In this document: positions 1 through 8,140 of the stretch, piece by piece | Layout: each line of letters opens with the position of its first letter | How positions within the stretch are numbered: position 1 is the stretch's first letter | NCBI GenBank assembly: GCA_004284765.1 | Contig: NQJD01000065.1 | Location: 1 to 8,140 of the forward strand | Source: Candidatus Electronema aureum | GTDB taxonomy: Bacteria > Desulfobacterota > Desulfobulbia > Desulfobulbales > Desulfobulbaceae | Length of the DNA: 8,140 bases | Reading direction: 5' to 3' | Position numbers and translations under genes: made by a program | Notes under the pieces: generated by a model | Told to the model about the DNA's origin: nothing | The model's input: the letters and a program-made list of their open reading frames with translations, nothing else | The model's database searches: none

Positions 1-233
1 AAATTCCCAAAAATTCTCTTGTTGTGATGGACAACGCAAGTTTTCATAAATCAGAAAAAACGAAGGAGCTTGTGAAAAAGTTTTCTTGCAGGCTGCTTTT
101 TTTGCCGCCTTATTCCCCTGATTTAAATCCAATAGAAAAATTTTGGGCTTCCATGAAGGCGAAAATTAAAAAAATAGCTGACGGCATCAAGAGTTTAAGC
201 GTTTGCGTTGAGACGGTTTTCCAGACGATCTAA
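1..233 (+). CDS. IS630-family (Tc1/mariner-like) DDE transposase, C-terminal fragment; the 5' end lies outside the window
   Basis: The frame is open from base 3 (IPKNSLVVMDNASFHK...), so the ATG listed at 24 is internal. The blocks VMDNASFHK and LPPYSPDLNPIEKFW match the second Asp and the Glu of the IS630 catalytic domain, with exactly 34 residues between D and E (DD(34)E). Stop TAA at 231-233. Spot GC is about 28-47%, lower than the adjacent pst genes. Confidence 0.85.
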   Translation, partial: IPKNSLVVMDNASFHKSEKTKELVKKFSCRLLFLPPYSPDLNPIEKFWASMKAKIKKIADGIKSLSVCVETVFQTI

Positions 234-2291: not shown

Positions 2292-2546
2292 TCAAACCTT
2301 TTCCTCTTTCAGGCAGAACCAAAGCTCGTCCAGCTTCATTGAACGCACCCGTTTCGGTGCCCAGTGATGCTTCTGCATCAAATAATAATGCACTGCCTCC
2401 AGGCCGGACACCTGCTCATACTTCTCGCGCTTGGCCAGCTTGTCGCCGATTTCCGCCAAGAGCTGCACGTTGATGACGGGCGGTGTGCCCTTGTGCTCGG
2501 CCTCGGCCAGCTCGGCCTCGGTATGAACTTTCTTGCTTTTGGTCAT
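2292..2546 (-). CDS. Hypothetical 84-aa protein encoded between pstS and pstC; no family recognised
   Basis: The ATG at 2546 is preceded by a consensus AAGGAG with a 7-nt spacer, so I prefer it to the upstream ATG at 2570. Third-position GC bias and codon choice resemble the flanking host genes. Charged and helical-looking (MTKSKKVHTEAELAEAEHKG...HYYLMQKHHWAPKRVRSMKLDELWFCLKEEKV). Stop TGA at 2292-2294. Confidence 0.6.
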   Translation of the reverse strand: MTKSKKVHTEAELAEAEHKGTPPVINVQLLAEIGDKLAKREKYEQVSGLEAVHYYLMQKHHWAPKRVRSMKLDELWFCLKEEKV

Positions 2547-2571
2547 GTTGCTGCTCCTTGCTTGTTGCATT

Positions 2572-3856: not shown

Positions 3857-3935
3857 TTACCTGTCCTCATCCACCTTAAACCCACCCGCCCACGAGATCA
3901 GCTTGATCTAACGCAGGGTTTCCTTGGCCGTAAAG
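3857..3935 (-). pseudogene. Degraded partial duplicate of the DUF1232 gene at 5630-5878
   Basis: 3868-3902 aligns to 5656-5690 (32/35 identical) and 3903-3935 aligns to 5796-5828 (28/33). The intervening 105 bp of the intact gene is missing, and the junction falls in an 8-bp repeat AGATCAGC present at 5683-5690 and 5788-5795. The remnant keeps the frame but carries an in-frame TAG (3908-3910, where the intact copy has TAT) and lacks the first 17 or so codons. It ends at its own TAA (3857-3859). Confidence 0.7.
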
Positions 3936-3987: not shown

Positions 3988-5586
3988 TTATTCATCGTTC
4001 CTTGAATCGGGTATTTTTTCTATTATGCACTTAGAGTTATCGGATGGTATTAATTCTATATCTACCAAGTCACCAATATTAATCTTCTCATATTGATTAT
4101 TTATTACTTTTGTCTTTACATCTGTAAATGTTTCTGACAGCTTTGGAAGAGGCAATTCTTTGTCGAATAGTTTGATTTTCCCGTGTTCGGATTGGTCTAC
4201 CCTAAAATAGATAGATTTCTCTTGATTATTGTATAATATTATTGAATCGCTATTAACTTCCATTTGTTTGATACATAGAGATTTGTTGTATGGGATAACA
4301 GATGAGCCATCTGATAATACCTTATGAATTATTTTTACTTCTGAATATATATCATCCGTTAGTTCAAATAAACTATTATAACATAGCTGATATTTCAATT
4401 TTCTCGATATATCCCTCGCCATCCTGATAAAGTCTAAATAAATAAACTGAGTTGAAAACGATGAGTTCTCGGCGCATTTCTCTGAACACGTTGAAAATAG
4501 AATTCTCCCTTCGCTTTCCACTGAAACAGTCAATATCCAATTATTATTTATCTTGTAGTAAAGATCATAAATTTGGTCAAAATATTGCATTTTATTCAAC
4601 TCACGTCCATCCCATATCTTATAATTTACAGTAATTCTATATTCAACTTTTGCAAGCCCACTTTCTCGGTCAAAAAATATTCCGATTTTTATCAAGAACA
4701 ATCCTCCTAATCCTTCTGCTTTTATGGTCGCTGACTCAGTTCCAGAAACCTCGTCACCGTGCAAATCATAAAATGATACTTCAGATTTCAAATCTGGAGA
4801 TATTGTTTTAATTCTAACTAAAATTGTTCTCTTGCAAGAACAACCTAAGTATATTTTTGAATTTTCATTTATTTCCAAACTTGGAAGTCCTTCAATTTTA
4901 ACTTCGCTGCTGTCAAAAGATACGCAGCTTCCATGCTTAATTAATTCTTTAAACTTTTCGGTCTTTACTGTTAATTTAACATCAATGGGTTCCTTTGGAT
5001 GAAGGAAATGATGAGTTTCTCCGTTGTAAAAATTTGTCTTAACAGTAAATCTTGGATCTAACTTTTCTATATAACCTGATGCAGCCTTGCTGGCATTTGG
5101 CATCAAATTAGGAAGAAAAACCGATGTCTGCCCTGTTGCCGCCGCTACCAGAGTATTTATCGCATCCTGTTCATCAGGAAGTTTTTTTCCTTGCTCACGC
5201 TTTGCGCTTTCCTCCGCCTTCTTTTTCCATTCATGCAGCAATGCTACAGTATATGTTTCCTCATCTTTATCAATTTTGTCAGCACAATTTGCACATAACC
5301 AGATTCCATTTGTTATGGATTGTCTCTCTTCAGATTCTAATGCCTTATTGTAACGCCTGGCACCAGGTCCGGGGGCAGCCGCTGTGATGTGCGCAGCCTC
5401 GCCGATGCTGTTTACTTTTTCCGACCCTTCATCAGATGGCGCATCAGTTGGGACGCGGCACTCAGGATTTGAACATCTGTTTCCTGCTCTTCTTCGTAAC
5501 GAATTTATTGTTTTCTGAGAGAAATCATCTCTGTTGTTCTTCTTTTGCGAGACGGTCATGTTCTGTTTTAATATGGTGTCTTGCAT
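3988..5586 (-). CDS. 532-aa protein: N-terminal HNH (beta-beta-alpha-Me)/zinc-ribbon nuclease-like domain fused to an uncharacterised C-terminal region of about 360 aa
   Basis: Long uninterrupted ORF in very AT-rich DNA, which is unlikely by chance. Residues about 30-112 (nt 5251-5499) carry C38-x4-C43 ... GEAAH66ITAAAPGPGARRY ... ITN93GIWLC98ANC101ADKID. This is the layout of Cys4 HNH nucleases: catalytic His in AHI, structural Asn, and two Cys pairs. The remainder (FTVKTNFYNGETHHF ... IELIPSDNSKCIIEKIPDSRNDE) looks beta-rich and I recognise no motifs. The start at 5586 has only a weak AAGG 10 nt upstream. Confidence 0.8.
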   Translation of the reverse strand: MQDTILKQNMTVSQKKNNRDDFSQKTINSLRRRAGNRCSNPECRVPTDAPSDEGSEKVNSIGEAAHITAAAPGPGARRYNKALESEERQSITNGIWLCANCADKIDKDEETYTVALLHEWKKKAEESAKREQGKKLPDEQDAINTLVAAATGQTSVFLPNLMPNASKAASGYIEKLDPRFTVKTNFYNGETHHFLHPKEPIDVKLTVKTEKFKELIKHGSCVSFDSSEVKIEGLPSLEINENSKIYLGCSCKRTILVRIKTISPDLKSEVSFYDLHGDEVSGTESATIKAEGLGGLFLIKIGIFFDRESGLAKVEYRITVNYKIWDGRELNKMQYFDQIYDLYYKINNNWILTVSVESEGRILFSTCSEKCAENSSFSTQFIYLDFIRMARDISRKLKYQLCYNSLFELTDDIYSEVKIIHKVLSDGSSVIPYNKSLCIKQMEVNSDSIILYNNQEKSIYFRVDQSEHGKIKLFDKELPLPKLSETFTDVKTKVINNQYEKINIGDLVDIELIPSDNSKCIIEKIPDSRNDE

Positions 5587-5597
5587 TGCAATTCAGC

Positions 5598-5614
5598 CTT
5601 ATTAGCATAATAAG
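5598..5614. promoter_or_regulatory. AT-rich perfect palindrome in the 43-bp spacer upstream of the HNH-fusion gene; possible operator or RBS-occluding hairpin
   Basis: cttatta-gca-taataag has 7-bp arms and a 3-bp centre. On the minus strand its 3' arm runs into the AAGG that is the only SD-like element before the ATG at 5586. -10-like TATGCT/TAATAA strings overlap it. Confidence 0.3.
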
Positions 5615-5629
5615 AATATTGCGCCGCAA

Positions 5630-5878
5630 CTATTTATCCTTAGAATTTCCTTCCCCATCCACCTTAAACCCGCTTGCCCACGAGATCAGCAGCGCAGCCA
5701 AGGTTAAATCATCCATCACCCCGATGATTGGCAGCCATTCAGGGATAATATCCCACGGCGAAACGATGTAGAGCAGACCAAACCCCAAGATCAGCTTGAC
5801 ATAACGCGGGGTTTCCTTGGCCCGAAAGACATGCCAAGCATGTCTTGTCATGCTAATGGCACGAGTAAGTGGATTCAT
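5630..5878 (-). CDS. Small membrane protein of the DUF1232 / YkvA family
   Basis: 82 aa with the family signature LLYIVSPWDIIPEWLPIIGVMDDLTLAALL (consensus Y-x-x-SP-x-D-x-IPD-x-x-P-x-x-G-x-x-DD). Its ATG (5876-5878) directly abuts the TGA of the upstream fabI-like gene (TGAATG), implying co-translation with the fab-like operon. Confidence 0.85.
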   Translation of the reverse strand: MNPLTRAISMTRHAWHVFRAKETPRYVKLILGFGLLYIVSPWDIIPEWLPIIGVMDDLTLAALLISWASGFKVDGEGNSKDK

Positions 5879-6679
5879 TCAGCGCACCGCCTTGCTGATA
5901 ATGTCTTTGTCGAAATAGTTGAAGCTCATGCCTGCGTCAACAACAATGGTCTGGCCGTTGATGCCGGAAGAGCGCGGCGAGAGCAGAAAGGCGGCTGCAT
6001 CAGCGACTTCTTCGGTGCGCAACGCCTGCTTGCGGGGAATGGCCTGCTCGGCGAAGATGTAGGAGTCAATGTAGCCGGGAATGCCCGCCGAGGCCGAGGT
6101 TTTCAGTAGGCTGGCCCCGACCGCGTTGAAGCGCACCCGTGAGAAGGCGGAGAAGGACTTGGCGAGAAAGCAGAGCGAGGAATCCAAGGCTGCTTTGACC
6201 GGGGCCATGTAGCCGTAGTTCTCTGAGGCCATGCGGGTGGTGGAAATGGAGATCGTCACCATCGCGCCGTCGGGATCAAGCAGTTCTTTGAAGTGATTAG
6301 CAATGGCGATGAAGGAAAAACAGGAGATGTCTATCGCTTGCAGGAAGTCGCGCTTCACAGTGCCGTGAAAGGGCTGCATTCCTTCGGAGTAATTGGCAAA
6401 GGCGATGGAATGGACAATGCCCGCAATCGGCCCGACGACTTGGGCAGCGATTTCGTCTCGCACCCTGATGATGTTTGCTTCGTTTTCCACATCGCAGCAG
6501 AAAACCGGGCTGGCCGGAAAGAGCTTGCGGCAGGTTGCGGCCCGCTCCTCGCTGCGCACGACATGAATCACTTCGGCTCCGGCTTCAAACAGTGCCTTGC
6601 CGACAGCGCAGGCCACCGACTTCTTGTTTGCCAAGCCGAAGATGACGACCTTCTTGCCTGCCAGCTTGAGAAAATCCAT
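5879..6679 (-). CDS. Enoyl-ACP reductase, FabI-like SDR (266 aa from the preferred start)
   Basis: Aligns by eye with E. coli FabI: [30 protein letters not shown] / [39 protein letters not shown] / CDVAEDASI; GIVHSIAFA / GFVHSIGFA. The catalytic Y-x6-K is present (NYGYMAPVK). The preferred start is the ATG at 6679, with AAGGAGG 6 nt upstream, overlapping the upstream TAA as TAATG. The 28-codon Arg-rich extension back to 6763 looks spurious. Confidence 0.85.
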
Positions 6680-7113
6680 TACTCGCCTCCTTTTAAGGCG
6701 CAGGCGAATTCCACCTGCACGGCAATCTTGCCGCCGACCTGCACACCGCCTTTGAGAAACCAAGCCGGGCCGACCTGCTCTTTCAAGGCCGCTGTGATTT
6801 CAATCAAATCGCCGGGCCGCACCTCGCGCTTGAACTTTGCGCCAAGAATGCGGGTCAACACCGGTACGCCCTGCAAATCCTGCTTGCCGCGCAGCGTTTC
6901 GGCAATCAGCAAGGCTCCAGCCTGAAAGACCGCCTCGCAGAGCAACACGCCCGGCATGATCGGATAGTCAGGATAATGCCCTTTGAAGACATCCAACTCC
7001 GCCGATACGGTTGTTTCTGCCCGGATTGCGCTCTCGGTCAACTCCAGCACCCGGTCAAGCCAAAGAAACGGGGGCCGGTGCGGAATCCGGGCGGTAATAA
7101 ACTCTCTGTCCAT
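6679..7113 (-). CDS. 3-hydroxyacyl-ACP dehydratase, FabZ/FabA-like hotdog fold
   Basis: 144-145 aa. [11 protein letters not shown] ... [27 protein letters not shown] matches the FabZ active-site block (H-F-P-x-x-P-x-x-PGVL ... E). The ATG at 7113 has GGAGGG 5 nt upstream and overlaps the fabG-like TGA as TGATG. A GTG at 7116 is an alternative start. Confidence 0.85.
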
Positions 7114-7883
7114 CACAACCCTCCGGTCACTTCCAGCACCGAGCCGTTGATATAAGCCGCCCGCTTGTCAGCGAGAAACAGCACCGCGTCCGCCACTTCT
7201 TCCGGTGTGCCAAAACGGCCCGCAGGCACCAGTTTCTTGTAGTCCTTCATCTGCTCTTCGGAGAGATCGCCGATGAATTCCGTGCCGATGAAGCCGGGCG
7301 AGACGCAGTTGACCGTGATCTTCCGCTTCGCCACCTCTTTGGAAAGCGATTTCATCAGCCCGACCTGTCCGGCCTTGGAAGCGGCGTAATTGGCCTGCCC
7401 GGCAAAACCGAGATGGCCCATCGGCGAGGTGATGAAGATGATGCGACCGTATTTCTGCTTCAGCATCAGCGGCAGGGCGAAGCGGCACATGTTATAGCCG
7501 CCGGTGAGGTTGACATCCAAGACGCGCTGCCAGTCCTCCTGCCGCATCATGGCTAAGACTGCGTCGCGGCGGATGCCCGCGTTGTTGACGAGGATATCAA
7601 TGGTGTCGAATTGCTCTTCGGTCTCGCGGCAGAAGACTTGCACGGCCTTGCAGTCGCTGACATCCACCTTGTGCAGACGCAGACGCTCGCCCGCTTCAGG
7701 ATGCGCGGCGGCAAAGGCGGAGGCTGCGGCCTCATCGCCGCTGTACAGGCCAAGTACGGTTGCTCCTTGGGCCAGCAGAGCCTCAGTAATTGCTTTGCCT
7801 ATGCCTTTGGTCGCGCCGGTAACAATGGCTTTTTGATTGGTGAAGGTGTTCAAAGGTGATTCTCGCGGTTGTTTTTTCAGCAA
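7113..7883 (-). CDS. 3-oxoacyl-ACP reductase, FabG-like classical SDR
   Basis: Rossmann motif AIVTGATKGIGKAI, NNAG, and the catalytic S...YAASK triad. Length is typical for the family. The start is uncertain. There is no ATG upstream of the Rossmann motif. The ORF opens with TTG at 7883 directly after an in-frame TAA, and another TTG lies at 7853. Neither has a convincing SD. Confidence 0.82.
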   Translation of the reverse strand: MLKKQPRESPLNTFTNQKAIVTGATKGIGKAITEALLAQGATVLGLYSGDEAAASAFAAAHPEAGERLRLHKVDVSDCKAVQVFCRETEEQFDTIDILVNNAGIRRDAVLAMMRQEDWQRVLDVNLTGGYNMCRFALPLMLKQKYGRIIFITSPMGHLGFAGQANYAASKAGQVGLMKSLSKEVAKRKITVNCVSPGFIGTEFIGDLSEEQMKDYKKLVPAGRFGTPEEVADAVLFLADKRAAYINGSVLEVTGGL

Positions 7884-8140
7884 TTAGTTATTGAGCAACT
7901 GCTTGAGCTGCTTCAGAAGTGCTGGAATGTCTTTTTCAATAGCATCCCATACGATTTCATTTTCGACAACATCATAACCGTGGGCAATCACGTTTCTGAA
8001 GCCGATAATCTGCTAATAGAGATCTGTGAGTGATCAATGAAATAAAATACAATCGTTGTAGTGATTAATAAATCTCCAAACAGATGCAGTTAAGTTTTCA
8101 ATGCTTCTCGAAAACGAAAATGTCTTCCTGACTAATGCCG
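7884..8140 (-). pseudogene. HEPN-domain toxin remnant (DUF86 / HepT-like), disrupted by in-frame stops
   Basis: The minus frame ending at TAA 7884-7886 reads QIIGFRNVIAHGYDVVENEIVWDAIEKDIPALLKQLKQLLNN (7887-8012). This carries the HEPN R-x4-H motif (RNVIAH) and the usual DUF86 C-terminal helix. Immediately upstream in the same frame are TAG (8013-8015, where the family often has Trp) and TGA (8034-8036). Further upstream the frame reads ...RSIENLTASVWRFINHYND, only vaguely HepT-like. The 5' end is outside the window. Confidence 0.55.

Follow-up and report, generated by a model that had tools for sequence, protein, structure and literature searches.

A gene of 532 codons from the cable bacterium Candidatus Electronema aureum was analysed within a window of 8,140 nucleotides, the whole stretch of DNA under study, which is in reverse complement a part of positions 1,502,869-1,524,467 of the chromosome. 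The gene lies on the minus strand at positions 3988-5586, and the open reading frame (ORF) list together with an exact protein match showed that it is complete and intact, starts with ATG and encodes a product identical to the deposited hypothetical protein CDV28_1656 (P0001). The protein is probably a stand-alone, horizontally acquired immune nuclease of the abortive-infection type, in which an N-terminal HNH domain, the head, would serve as the effector and a large C-terminal region, the tail, as the sensor or regulatory platform. An earlier note made from the sequence alone had proposed a nuclease effector joined to a sensor-like domain that acts as a single-gene defence or conflict system. 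Our analysis supported this proposal because the head belongs to an HNH clade of immune effectors, because the same tail carries alternative heads in other proteins, and because family members are embedded in a restriction-modification (R-M) operon or found in Tn7-like and integrase contexts; it is from these observations that we infer the defence role. The protein was divided into the HNH head, a helical linker and an uncharacterised C-terminal module, and a full-length AlphaFold2 (AF2) model had a mean predicted local distance difference test (pLDDT) score of 85.9.

A Cys4 HNH head and an unplaced C-terminal module

The head was delimited by PADLOC, Foldseek and profile matches to residues 19-113 (positions 5248-5532, minus strand). 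Its Cys4 zinc site consists of C38, C43, C98 and C101, the catalytic residues are H66 and N93, and D106 and D108 are conserved as well. The corresponding motifs are C38-S-N-P-E-C43, G62-E-A-A-H66-I and N93-G-I-W-L-C98-A-N-C101-..-K-I-D106, and both the intact 532-residue ORF and the Cys4 layout that the earlier note had read from it were found where it had placed them. In a 39-member family alignment, C38, H66, N93, C98 and D106 were invariant, and C43, C101 and D108 were conserved in at least 90% of the members. With its catalytic and zinc residues invariant or nearly so, the head thus looks catalytically competent.

The Pfam score of the head was weak, and the HNH identity was instead taken from PADLOC, PHROG, PDB and fold matches. 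HNH_2 (PF13391) matched residues 61-101 with 13.7 bits (E 0.059) against a gathering threshold of 21 bits, and similarly weak matches were seen in 17 of the 39 family members. PADLOC models matched the head with E-values of 7.8e-24 for PDC-M68A, 9.9e-15 for the best of the 'Effector Endonuclease' models of the cyclic-oligonucleotide-based antiphage signalling system (CBASS), and 1.4e-13 for SAVED_HNH. A match to SduA (7.7e-8) covered only model positions 14-112, which is the optional N-terminal HNH domain of some Shedu proteins. The family profile matched the SPARHA HNH-APAZ effector 9om4 (E 2e-11) and four Cap5 structures, in each case over the first ~110 residues only. When the full-length AF2 model was searched with Foldseek, Cap5 tetramer structures (8fmh and 9dih) were recovered over ~110 columns (for 8fmh, E 7e-4 and 109 columns), and nothing else was credible. 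Among species-representative genomes, the nearest heads (50-58% identity) were carried either by NACHT/STAND (signal transduction ATPases with numerous domains) proteins of 1,240-1,480 residues or by short proteins of ~240-300 residues. A first-search homologue, P0115, combined the HNH domain with NB-ARC and TPR, and the head was 47-53% identical to genes of P2-EC46 and a Yersinia phage. By sequence and fold comparison, the head is therefore assigned to the HNH clade used as an effector in CBASS Cap5, in SPARHA HNH-APAZ, in some Shedu proteins and in STAND NTPases. The HNH domains of SPARHA and Cap5 superimpose, and both become active when four HNH domains assemble into a tetramer that has a composite double active site; the same clade is carried by further immunity platforms, namely STAND, PPR, ABC-3C effectors and MTAN (PMC12738770).

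Cap5 of CBASS (8fm1, 8fmh, 9dif, 7rwm) has the same HNH/Zn-ribbon head as judged from sequence and fold, with ~25% identity over ~110 residues, and the same order of head followed by regulatory region. Oligomerisation of the HNH heads is probably the activation principle that the two proteins would have in common, by analogy with Cap5. In contrast to Cap5, the E. aureum protein has no SAVED tail (the matches end at about residue 130, and the 39 members are without Pfam SAVED), is ~150 residues longer and stands alone, with no CD-NTase gene within 10 kb on either side and none conserved in 35 loci. The best relative of the head by sequence among solved structures was 9om4, and both proteins place an HNH head on a beta-rich body. 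However, the match was limited to residues 5-108 of the 9om4 chain, the tail showed no similarity to APAZ by sequence or by Foldseek, and no annotated locus had an adjacent gene for a short prokaryotic Argonaute (pAgo; MID-PIWI). No pAgo-system structure was among the Foldseek matches listed for the tail. Identification of the tail as SAVED or APAZ was rejected, as every Cap5 and 9om4 match stops near residue 130. Shedu (SduA) differs in having a DUF4263 PD-(D/E)xK core, which Pfam did not find here.

In the Avs-like STAND/NACHT proteins, where the nearest HNH heads sit on NACHT or NB-ARC bodies with TPR or HEAT sensors, the likeness lies in an N-terminal effector, or an effector-associated domain (EAD) as adaptor, on a constant sensor body (PMC8195603). 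The difference is that no NTPase family was found in the E. aureum protein or its 39 homologues, and that the protein has no repeat array but a compact body of 350 residues with an unplaced fold. The highest-scoring matches to the head were PDC-M68 protein A and the HNH 'lysogenic conversion' genes of P2-like phages, but these are proteins of ~250-370 residues that share the head only (model positions 4-112 of 253), and none has this tail.

The head is followed by a helical linker, residues 114-175 (positions 5062-5247, minus strand), in which AF2 placed helices at 114-131, 139-151 and 157-176. Part of the linker was modelled with low confidence (pLDDT 56-62 for residues 131-160). The C-terminal module that defines the family then spans residues 176-526 (positions 4009-5061, minus strand), as delimited by the AF2 tail-only model and the tail profile search. 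An AF2 model of residues 171-532 alone, built with the family alignment, reached a pLDDT of 90.2 and a predicted template modelling (pTM) score of 0.82. The predicted fold starts at a conserved LDPRF motif and comprises two beta-rich parts, a helical hairpin and a terminal beta domain. Conserved residues are scattered over the module (LDPRF 176-180, G219, G233, W325, an LPYF motif, E..G 357-360 and P481), with D177, R179, G219 and W325 invariant. No catalytic-looking motif was found in the tail, and hhalign comparisons among four sub-regions gave no sign of an internal duplication (probabilities at most 5%). The tail is net acidic in 90% of the members.

The earlier note could place no motif in the C-terminal region, and the databases were equally blank. 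We searched PADLOC-DB 2.0 (2023), including its PDC candidates, and 2025/2026 copies of Pfam and NCBIfam, and the full protein had no model or entry in any of the three. The tail had no Pfam family in any of the 39 members, no NCBIfam or PADLOC model beyond the HNH head, and no sequence relative in the PDB. A Foldseek search of the tail against 350,542 PDB chains returned no match at E ≤ 1e-3 (best query TM-score 0.15), and nothing credible was obtained from the viral predicted structures of BFVD. In the literature searched, on PDC-M68, EAD7, single-protein HNH defence and cable-bacteria defence, no description of the tail family was found. The module was thus matched to no characterised family or described defence system in any of these sources. 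We propose that it is a sensor or regulatory platform.

Family distribution, head exchange and genomic context

The gene had been described as an orphan, which did not hold. A first search gave 153 homologues, most of them 510-540 residues long and co-linear over 95% of their length, and none was annotated by Pfam. A profile search with the tail only returned 1,149 cluster representatives (clusters at 50% identity) at E ≤ 1e-3, and 447 of these at E ≤ 1e-30. The protein also matched phrog_29098, a PHROG of unknown function (1e-37, residues 16-422), and it has the full-length C-terminal module match, beginning at the LDPRF motif, by which the family is defined. Near-full-length copies were present in about 33 species-representative genomes with a patchy distribution. 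The carriers were cable bacteria and other Desulfobulbales, Methylophilus, Methylophaga, Methylobacter, Halomonas, several Pseudomonas and Acinetobacter (one on a plasmid), Vibrio, Rheinheimera, Buttiauxella, Undibacterium, Duganella, Azonexus, Synechococcales and one Anaerolineae metagenome-assembled genome (MAG). No full-length copy was found among 50,697 phage records.

The guanine-plus-cytosine (GC) content of the gene is 0.357 compared to about 0.6 in the flanks, with 0.57 in the enoyl-reductase-like gene upstream and 0.62 in pstS downstream, which bears out the claim that the gene is compositionally foreign to its surroundings. Across the family, the GC content was at least 0.05 below that of the flanks in 27 of 34 loci, with a mean difference of -0.10. 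Within the gene, the head was consistently richer in GC than the tail (here 0.45 for the first third of the gene compared to 0.31 for the tail; mean difference 0.065 across 34 homologous loci). The tail also diverged much faster than the head: identity among the cable-bacteria homologues was 32-58% in the tail and 72-89% in the head, and family-wide it was 25% and 55%, respectively. At nucleotide identities of 65-74%, synonymous sites were saturated. The drop in GC content and nucleotide identity from head to tail suggests either that recombination has had breakpoints within the gene or that its two parts evolve at very different rates.

The HNH head was present on 237 of the ~250 tail-carrying proteins that were inspected, and most of the others were truncated gene calls. 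Four proteins carried a different head at the same position. P0130 has a DUF4365 restriction-endonuclease-like domain (PF14280, 1.7e-15), which also matched the pAgo-associated PADLOC model Aga_REase and is the type of head used by SPARDA. In P0137, the head is a DUF676 serine esterase, and in P0218 it is EAD7 (effector-associated domain 7), with a match above threshold (8.5e-13). P0134 has a different, PtuB-like HNH domain, for which the match was weak (E 9e-4) and the motif visible by eye. EADs are non-enzymatic adaptors that recruit effectors through homotypic contacts (PMC7159879), and a constant body with interchangeable heads follows the architectural logic of conflict systems (PMC7159879, PMC8195603). 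By this logic, the occurrence of several heads on the same tail suggests that the tail is the sensor or regulatory body and the head an interchangeable effector.

Neighbouring genes were clustered for 35 non-redundant loci, using four ORFs on either side of the gene. No conserved partner gene was found in these loci; the commonest neighbour families occurred in at most four loci and at varying positions. The gene would thus work alone or with unlinked factors. A search for homologues in conserved housekeeping synteny gave the same picture, as the contexts varied by genome, no partner was kept, and ~20 related contigs have the host operon described below but not the gene. A reading with unlinked factors would make the protein an effector or receptor of a signalling pathway, with the tail binding a diffusible nucleotide or another signal, made by an enzyme that is encoded at another site of the genome or made by the phage, much as SAVED does in Cap5. 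Cap5, a signal-activated effector, is among the nearest solved structures of the head, and some conserved polar or aromatic positions of the tail (D177, R179, W325 and the YF and E..G motifs) could line a pocket. Nevertheless, no cyclase or other signal-generating gene was conserved nearby in the 35 loci, the tail resembled neither SAVED and CARF nor any other known ligand sensor in Pfam and Foldseek, and its strong divergence is easier to reconcile with recognition of variable phage proteins than of a small molecule that does not change. We consider this reading quite unlikely.

Several members were located in mobile or defence-associated contexts. On plasmid pSULKU03 of Sulfuricurvum kujiense (L173, record positions 5506-17000), three genes lie between hsdS and hsdR of a type I R-M operon, namely a family member, an XRE regulator and a PIN-domain gene in this order, and the start of the family member overlaps hsdS by 4 nt. 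The Undibacterium copy is cargo of a Tn7-like element together with a caspase-like gene, type I R-M and an AAA_15 ATPase, and integrases were found beside the gene in a Burkholderiales MAG and in Methylophilus. The esterase-headed variant has a toxin-antitoxin (TA) gene, a transposase and a NACHT protein nearby. Among 139 neighbours, four were AriA/GajA/PtuA/AbiLi-like ATPases and two carried NERD. In Pseudomonas syringae, a 221-residue gene without family match (L006, positions 7330-7995) ends 5 bp before the start of the family member; it was not seen in the other loci and may be a lineage-specific partner.

The position inside a type I R-M operon would also be consistent with a modification-dependent (type IV-like) or DNA-directed restriction nuclease, in which the tail reads the DNA and the head cuts it directly without killing the cell. 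Combinations of HNH with reader domains such as SRA, EVE and McrA are a known design (PMC12738770), and a GmrSD_N gene lies 6 kb from the E. aureum gene. However, no SRA, EVE, McrA-N or similar reader was detected by Pfam in the 39 members or by Foldseek with the tail model, and the acidity of the tail argues against this role. Esterase and EAD7 heads on the same tail have no need for DNA targeting, and the HNH head falls in the oligomerisation-activated clade, outside the restriction-enzyme HNH groups. A restriction nuclease of this type is therefore unlikely.

Some observations weigh against an immune nuclease. The alternative heads are rare (the four among ~250 tail carriers), housekeeping genes surround the gene in many loci, and the copy of Electronema sp. 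VV, which is without DUF1232, is placed between cinA and recA, where the ends of the genes overlap. The VV copy and the members on plasmids and islands could instead point to functions unrelated to phage defence, that is, an addiction or competition module of mobile elements or a housekeeping nuclease in DNA processing. For the former, a conserved antitoxin-like neighbour was lacking. The latter does not fit with the patchy distribution, the AT-rich composition and the empty sites, and the cinA/recA position was limited to one genome. Taken together, either of these functions is very unlikely, and we retain the immune nuclease as the favoured reading.

Insertion beside DUF1232 and local history

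The gene lies between an operon of fab-like and DUF1232 genes and pstS, in agreement with the description of a gene wedged between a conserved metabolic operon and the pst operon. The upstream host operon (5630-7883, minus strand) comprises a FabG-like gene, an ApeI/FabA-like dehydratase gene, an enoyl-reductase-like gene and DUF1232. The same arrangement of four genes, in which DUF1232 comes immediately behind the reductase, was kept in ~20 metagenomic contigs related to Desulfobulbales (loci L090-L144), and the conserved unit links DUF1232, a small membrane protein, to a specialised lipid or aryl-polyene-like pathway. In 80 contigs examined, neither the HNH gene nor pstS followed the operon. 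Since ~20 contigs have the operon with DUF1232 but without the HNH gene, DUF1232 is the resident host gene and the HNH gene the insertion.

The intact DUF1232 gene, the fourth of the operon, encodes 82 residues (positions 5630-5878, minus strand; PF06803, E 2.6e-12) and lies 43 bp upstream of the HNH gene. A second, decayed and 5'-truncated DUF1232 copy was identified by direct repeats, tblastn and frame reading at positions 3864-3935 on the minus strand, ~50 bp past the HNH stop codon. Along the minus strand, intact DUF1232 is thus separated by 43 bp from the HNH gene, which is followed after ~50 bp by the DUF1232 pseudogene and then by pstS. Two direct repeats in the pseudogene, D1 and D2, were 85-90% identical to positions 5783-5828 and 5652-5690 of the intact gene, which agrees with the earlier note that duplicated host sequence brackets the HNH gene. 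The pseudogene starts near codon 17, contains an in-frame TAG and has a 105-bp deletion at GCTGATCT microhomology. It is the right-hand scar of the insertion.

In a related Desulfobulbaceae MAG (L011), which shared the upstream synteny, the host genes were 91-96% identical at the protein level, DUF1232 reached 76% and the HNH protein only 54%. At the nucleotide level, identity was 88% through DUF1232, 82% in the head and at most 65% in the tail, and no similarity to this MAG was found downstream of the HNH gene. Electronema sp. JM has the DUF1232 and HNH genes as a pair in an unrelated context, which we take as hitch-hiking of the homology anchor. DUF1232 was also tried as a general functional partner of the HNH gene and rejected, as it lay immediately upstream in three loci of cable bacteria but was missing from the remaining 32, and as it is resident in the ~20 contigs that lack the HNH gene. 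Comparison of these sequences suggests that the HNH gene came in together with another copy of DUF1232 through homology-assisted recombination at the resident DUF1232, and not by an activity of its own. The simplest reading is that divergent alleles have passed between cable bacteria by recombination for which DUF1232 served as the anchor, which would have left the duplicated anchor behind, and that the tail is the fast-changing part.

This local history also bears on the possibility of a selfish homing-type HNH endonuclease gene, which would spread by cutting empty sites and which the earlier note had named as the other reading. A single AT-rich gene that lies tightly between housekeeping genes, at a synteny breakpoint and at different positions in three Electronema genomes, is what such a gene might look like. 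A duplicated and decayed DUF1232 copy is, however, not expected from precise homing, and free-standing HNH homing endonucleases differ further in that no full-length phage copy of the present gene was found in the phage records and the tail contains no DNA-binding motif or family. The DNA-binding modules of homing endonucleases are typically far smaller than this tail. In other genomes the gene is carried by Tn7-like elements, integrase islands and plasmids, its head belongs to the clade of immune effectors, and the acidic tail is also paired with esterase or EAD7 heads. Homing is thus highly improbable, and the duplicated flank is more readily accounted for by the recombination at DUF1232.

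A scan for promoters and terminators around the HNH gene gave no more sites than shuffled sequence. Debris of mobile and conflict genes was present elsewhere in the window, as the earlier note had claimed. A fragment of an IS630-type DDE_3 transposase at positions 24-233 (plus strand; profile positions 85-135 of 146, E 3.7e-18) adjoins the end of pstA, and beyond this fragment several DDE_Tnp_1 transposases occur in the genome (L001, positions 16222-20154). The C-terminal fragment of a HepT-like HEPN toxin at positions 7884-8012 (minus strand) matched positions 82-119 of 120 of PF01934 (E 1.3e-11) and contains an RNVIAH motif; it abuts the start of the FabG-like gene, and stop codons break its upstream part. 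A separate MNT/HepT pair lies ~0.8 kb past the window end (L001, positions 6157-6679). This pair is one of the conflict genes at L001 positions 4093-6815, outside the window and upstream of the fab-like operon, which also include GmrSD_N (DUF262) and a DUF4160/DUF2442 pair. The cluster indicates that the wider region is a small defence/TA island, and GmrSD_N, MNT/HepT and transposases all lie within 10 kb of the HNH gene.

Two further elements were observed in the region. Inside the pst operon, between pstS and pstC, a 92-residue ORF (positions 2292-2570, minus strand), for which an 84-residue gene is called in the deposited genome, matched the ECs1072 phage-associated protein family of NCBIfam with 29.8 bits, which is below the cutoff of 70, and beside it is an inverted repeat with 29-nt arms at positions 2187-2270. 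An 80-residue gene without family match occurs in three copies within 21 kb (L001, positions 7186-7428, 18644-18886 and 20564-20806), the first of which ends just outside window position 8140; the translations of two copies were compared and were identical. Transposases adjoin two of the three copies, related sequence was found in Electronema sp. JM (L008, positions 16914-17608), and the gene probably belongs to a repeated mobile element that is as yet uncharacterised.

Proposed mechanism and significance

If the protein is an immune nuclease, it would be inactive in the uninfected cell. Upon infection, an associated cue, more likely a protein or a small ligand than DNA, would be recognised by the fast-evolving acidic tail, and this recognition would drive self-association of the protein. 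Self-association would then bring the HNH heads into the dimer-of-dimers that activates the HNH clade in Cap5 and SPARHA, and the outcome would be indiscriminate double-strand DNA cleavage followed by the death or arrest of the infected cell. We suggest tentatively, as a possibility that falls somewhat short of even chances, that the tail, unrelated to any solved structure, represents a new structural class of infection sensor that recognises a phage component directly and by self-assembly switches on any head attached to it, be it HNH, REase, esterase or a partner recruited by EAD7, without an NTPase, a second messenger or a guide nucleic acid.

Both the effector and the design principle are known, and many candidate defence families of similar design have been described; what is new is the combination with a previously undescribed, putative sensor module, and the value of the finding lies in this module and not in a new principle. 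If the defence role is right, the family would be an uncharacterised anti-phage family of ~1,000 sequence clusters, in which the HNH nuclease of Cap5 and SPARHA is placed on a sensor of unplaced fold. This would add a route of control for the HNH nuclease besides cyclic nucleotides acting through SAVED, guides acting through pAgo, and STAND NTPases, and it would offer a compact one-protein model for how recognition leads to nuclease assembly. With its rapidly evolving tail and exchangeable heads, the family is tractable for finding a new phage trigger by way of escape mutants. The locus would also document how an immune gene can pass between cable bacteria, which are uncultured, multicellular and electrically conductive, through recombination that uses an adjacent host gene as its anchor. 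On the tentative reading of the tail as a new class of sensor, the E. aureum protein would belong to a new single-protein abortive-infection family that is widespread in Proteobacteria and present in the multicellular cable bacteria.

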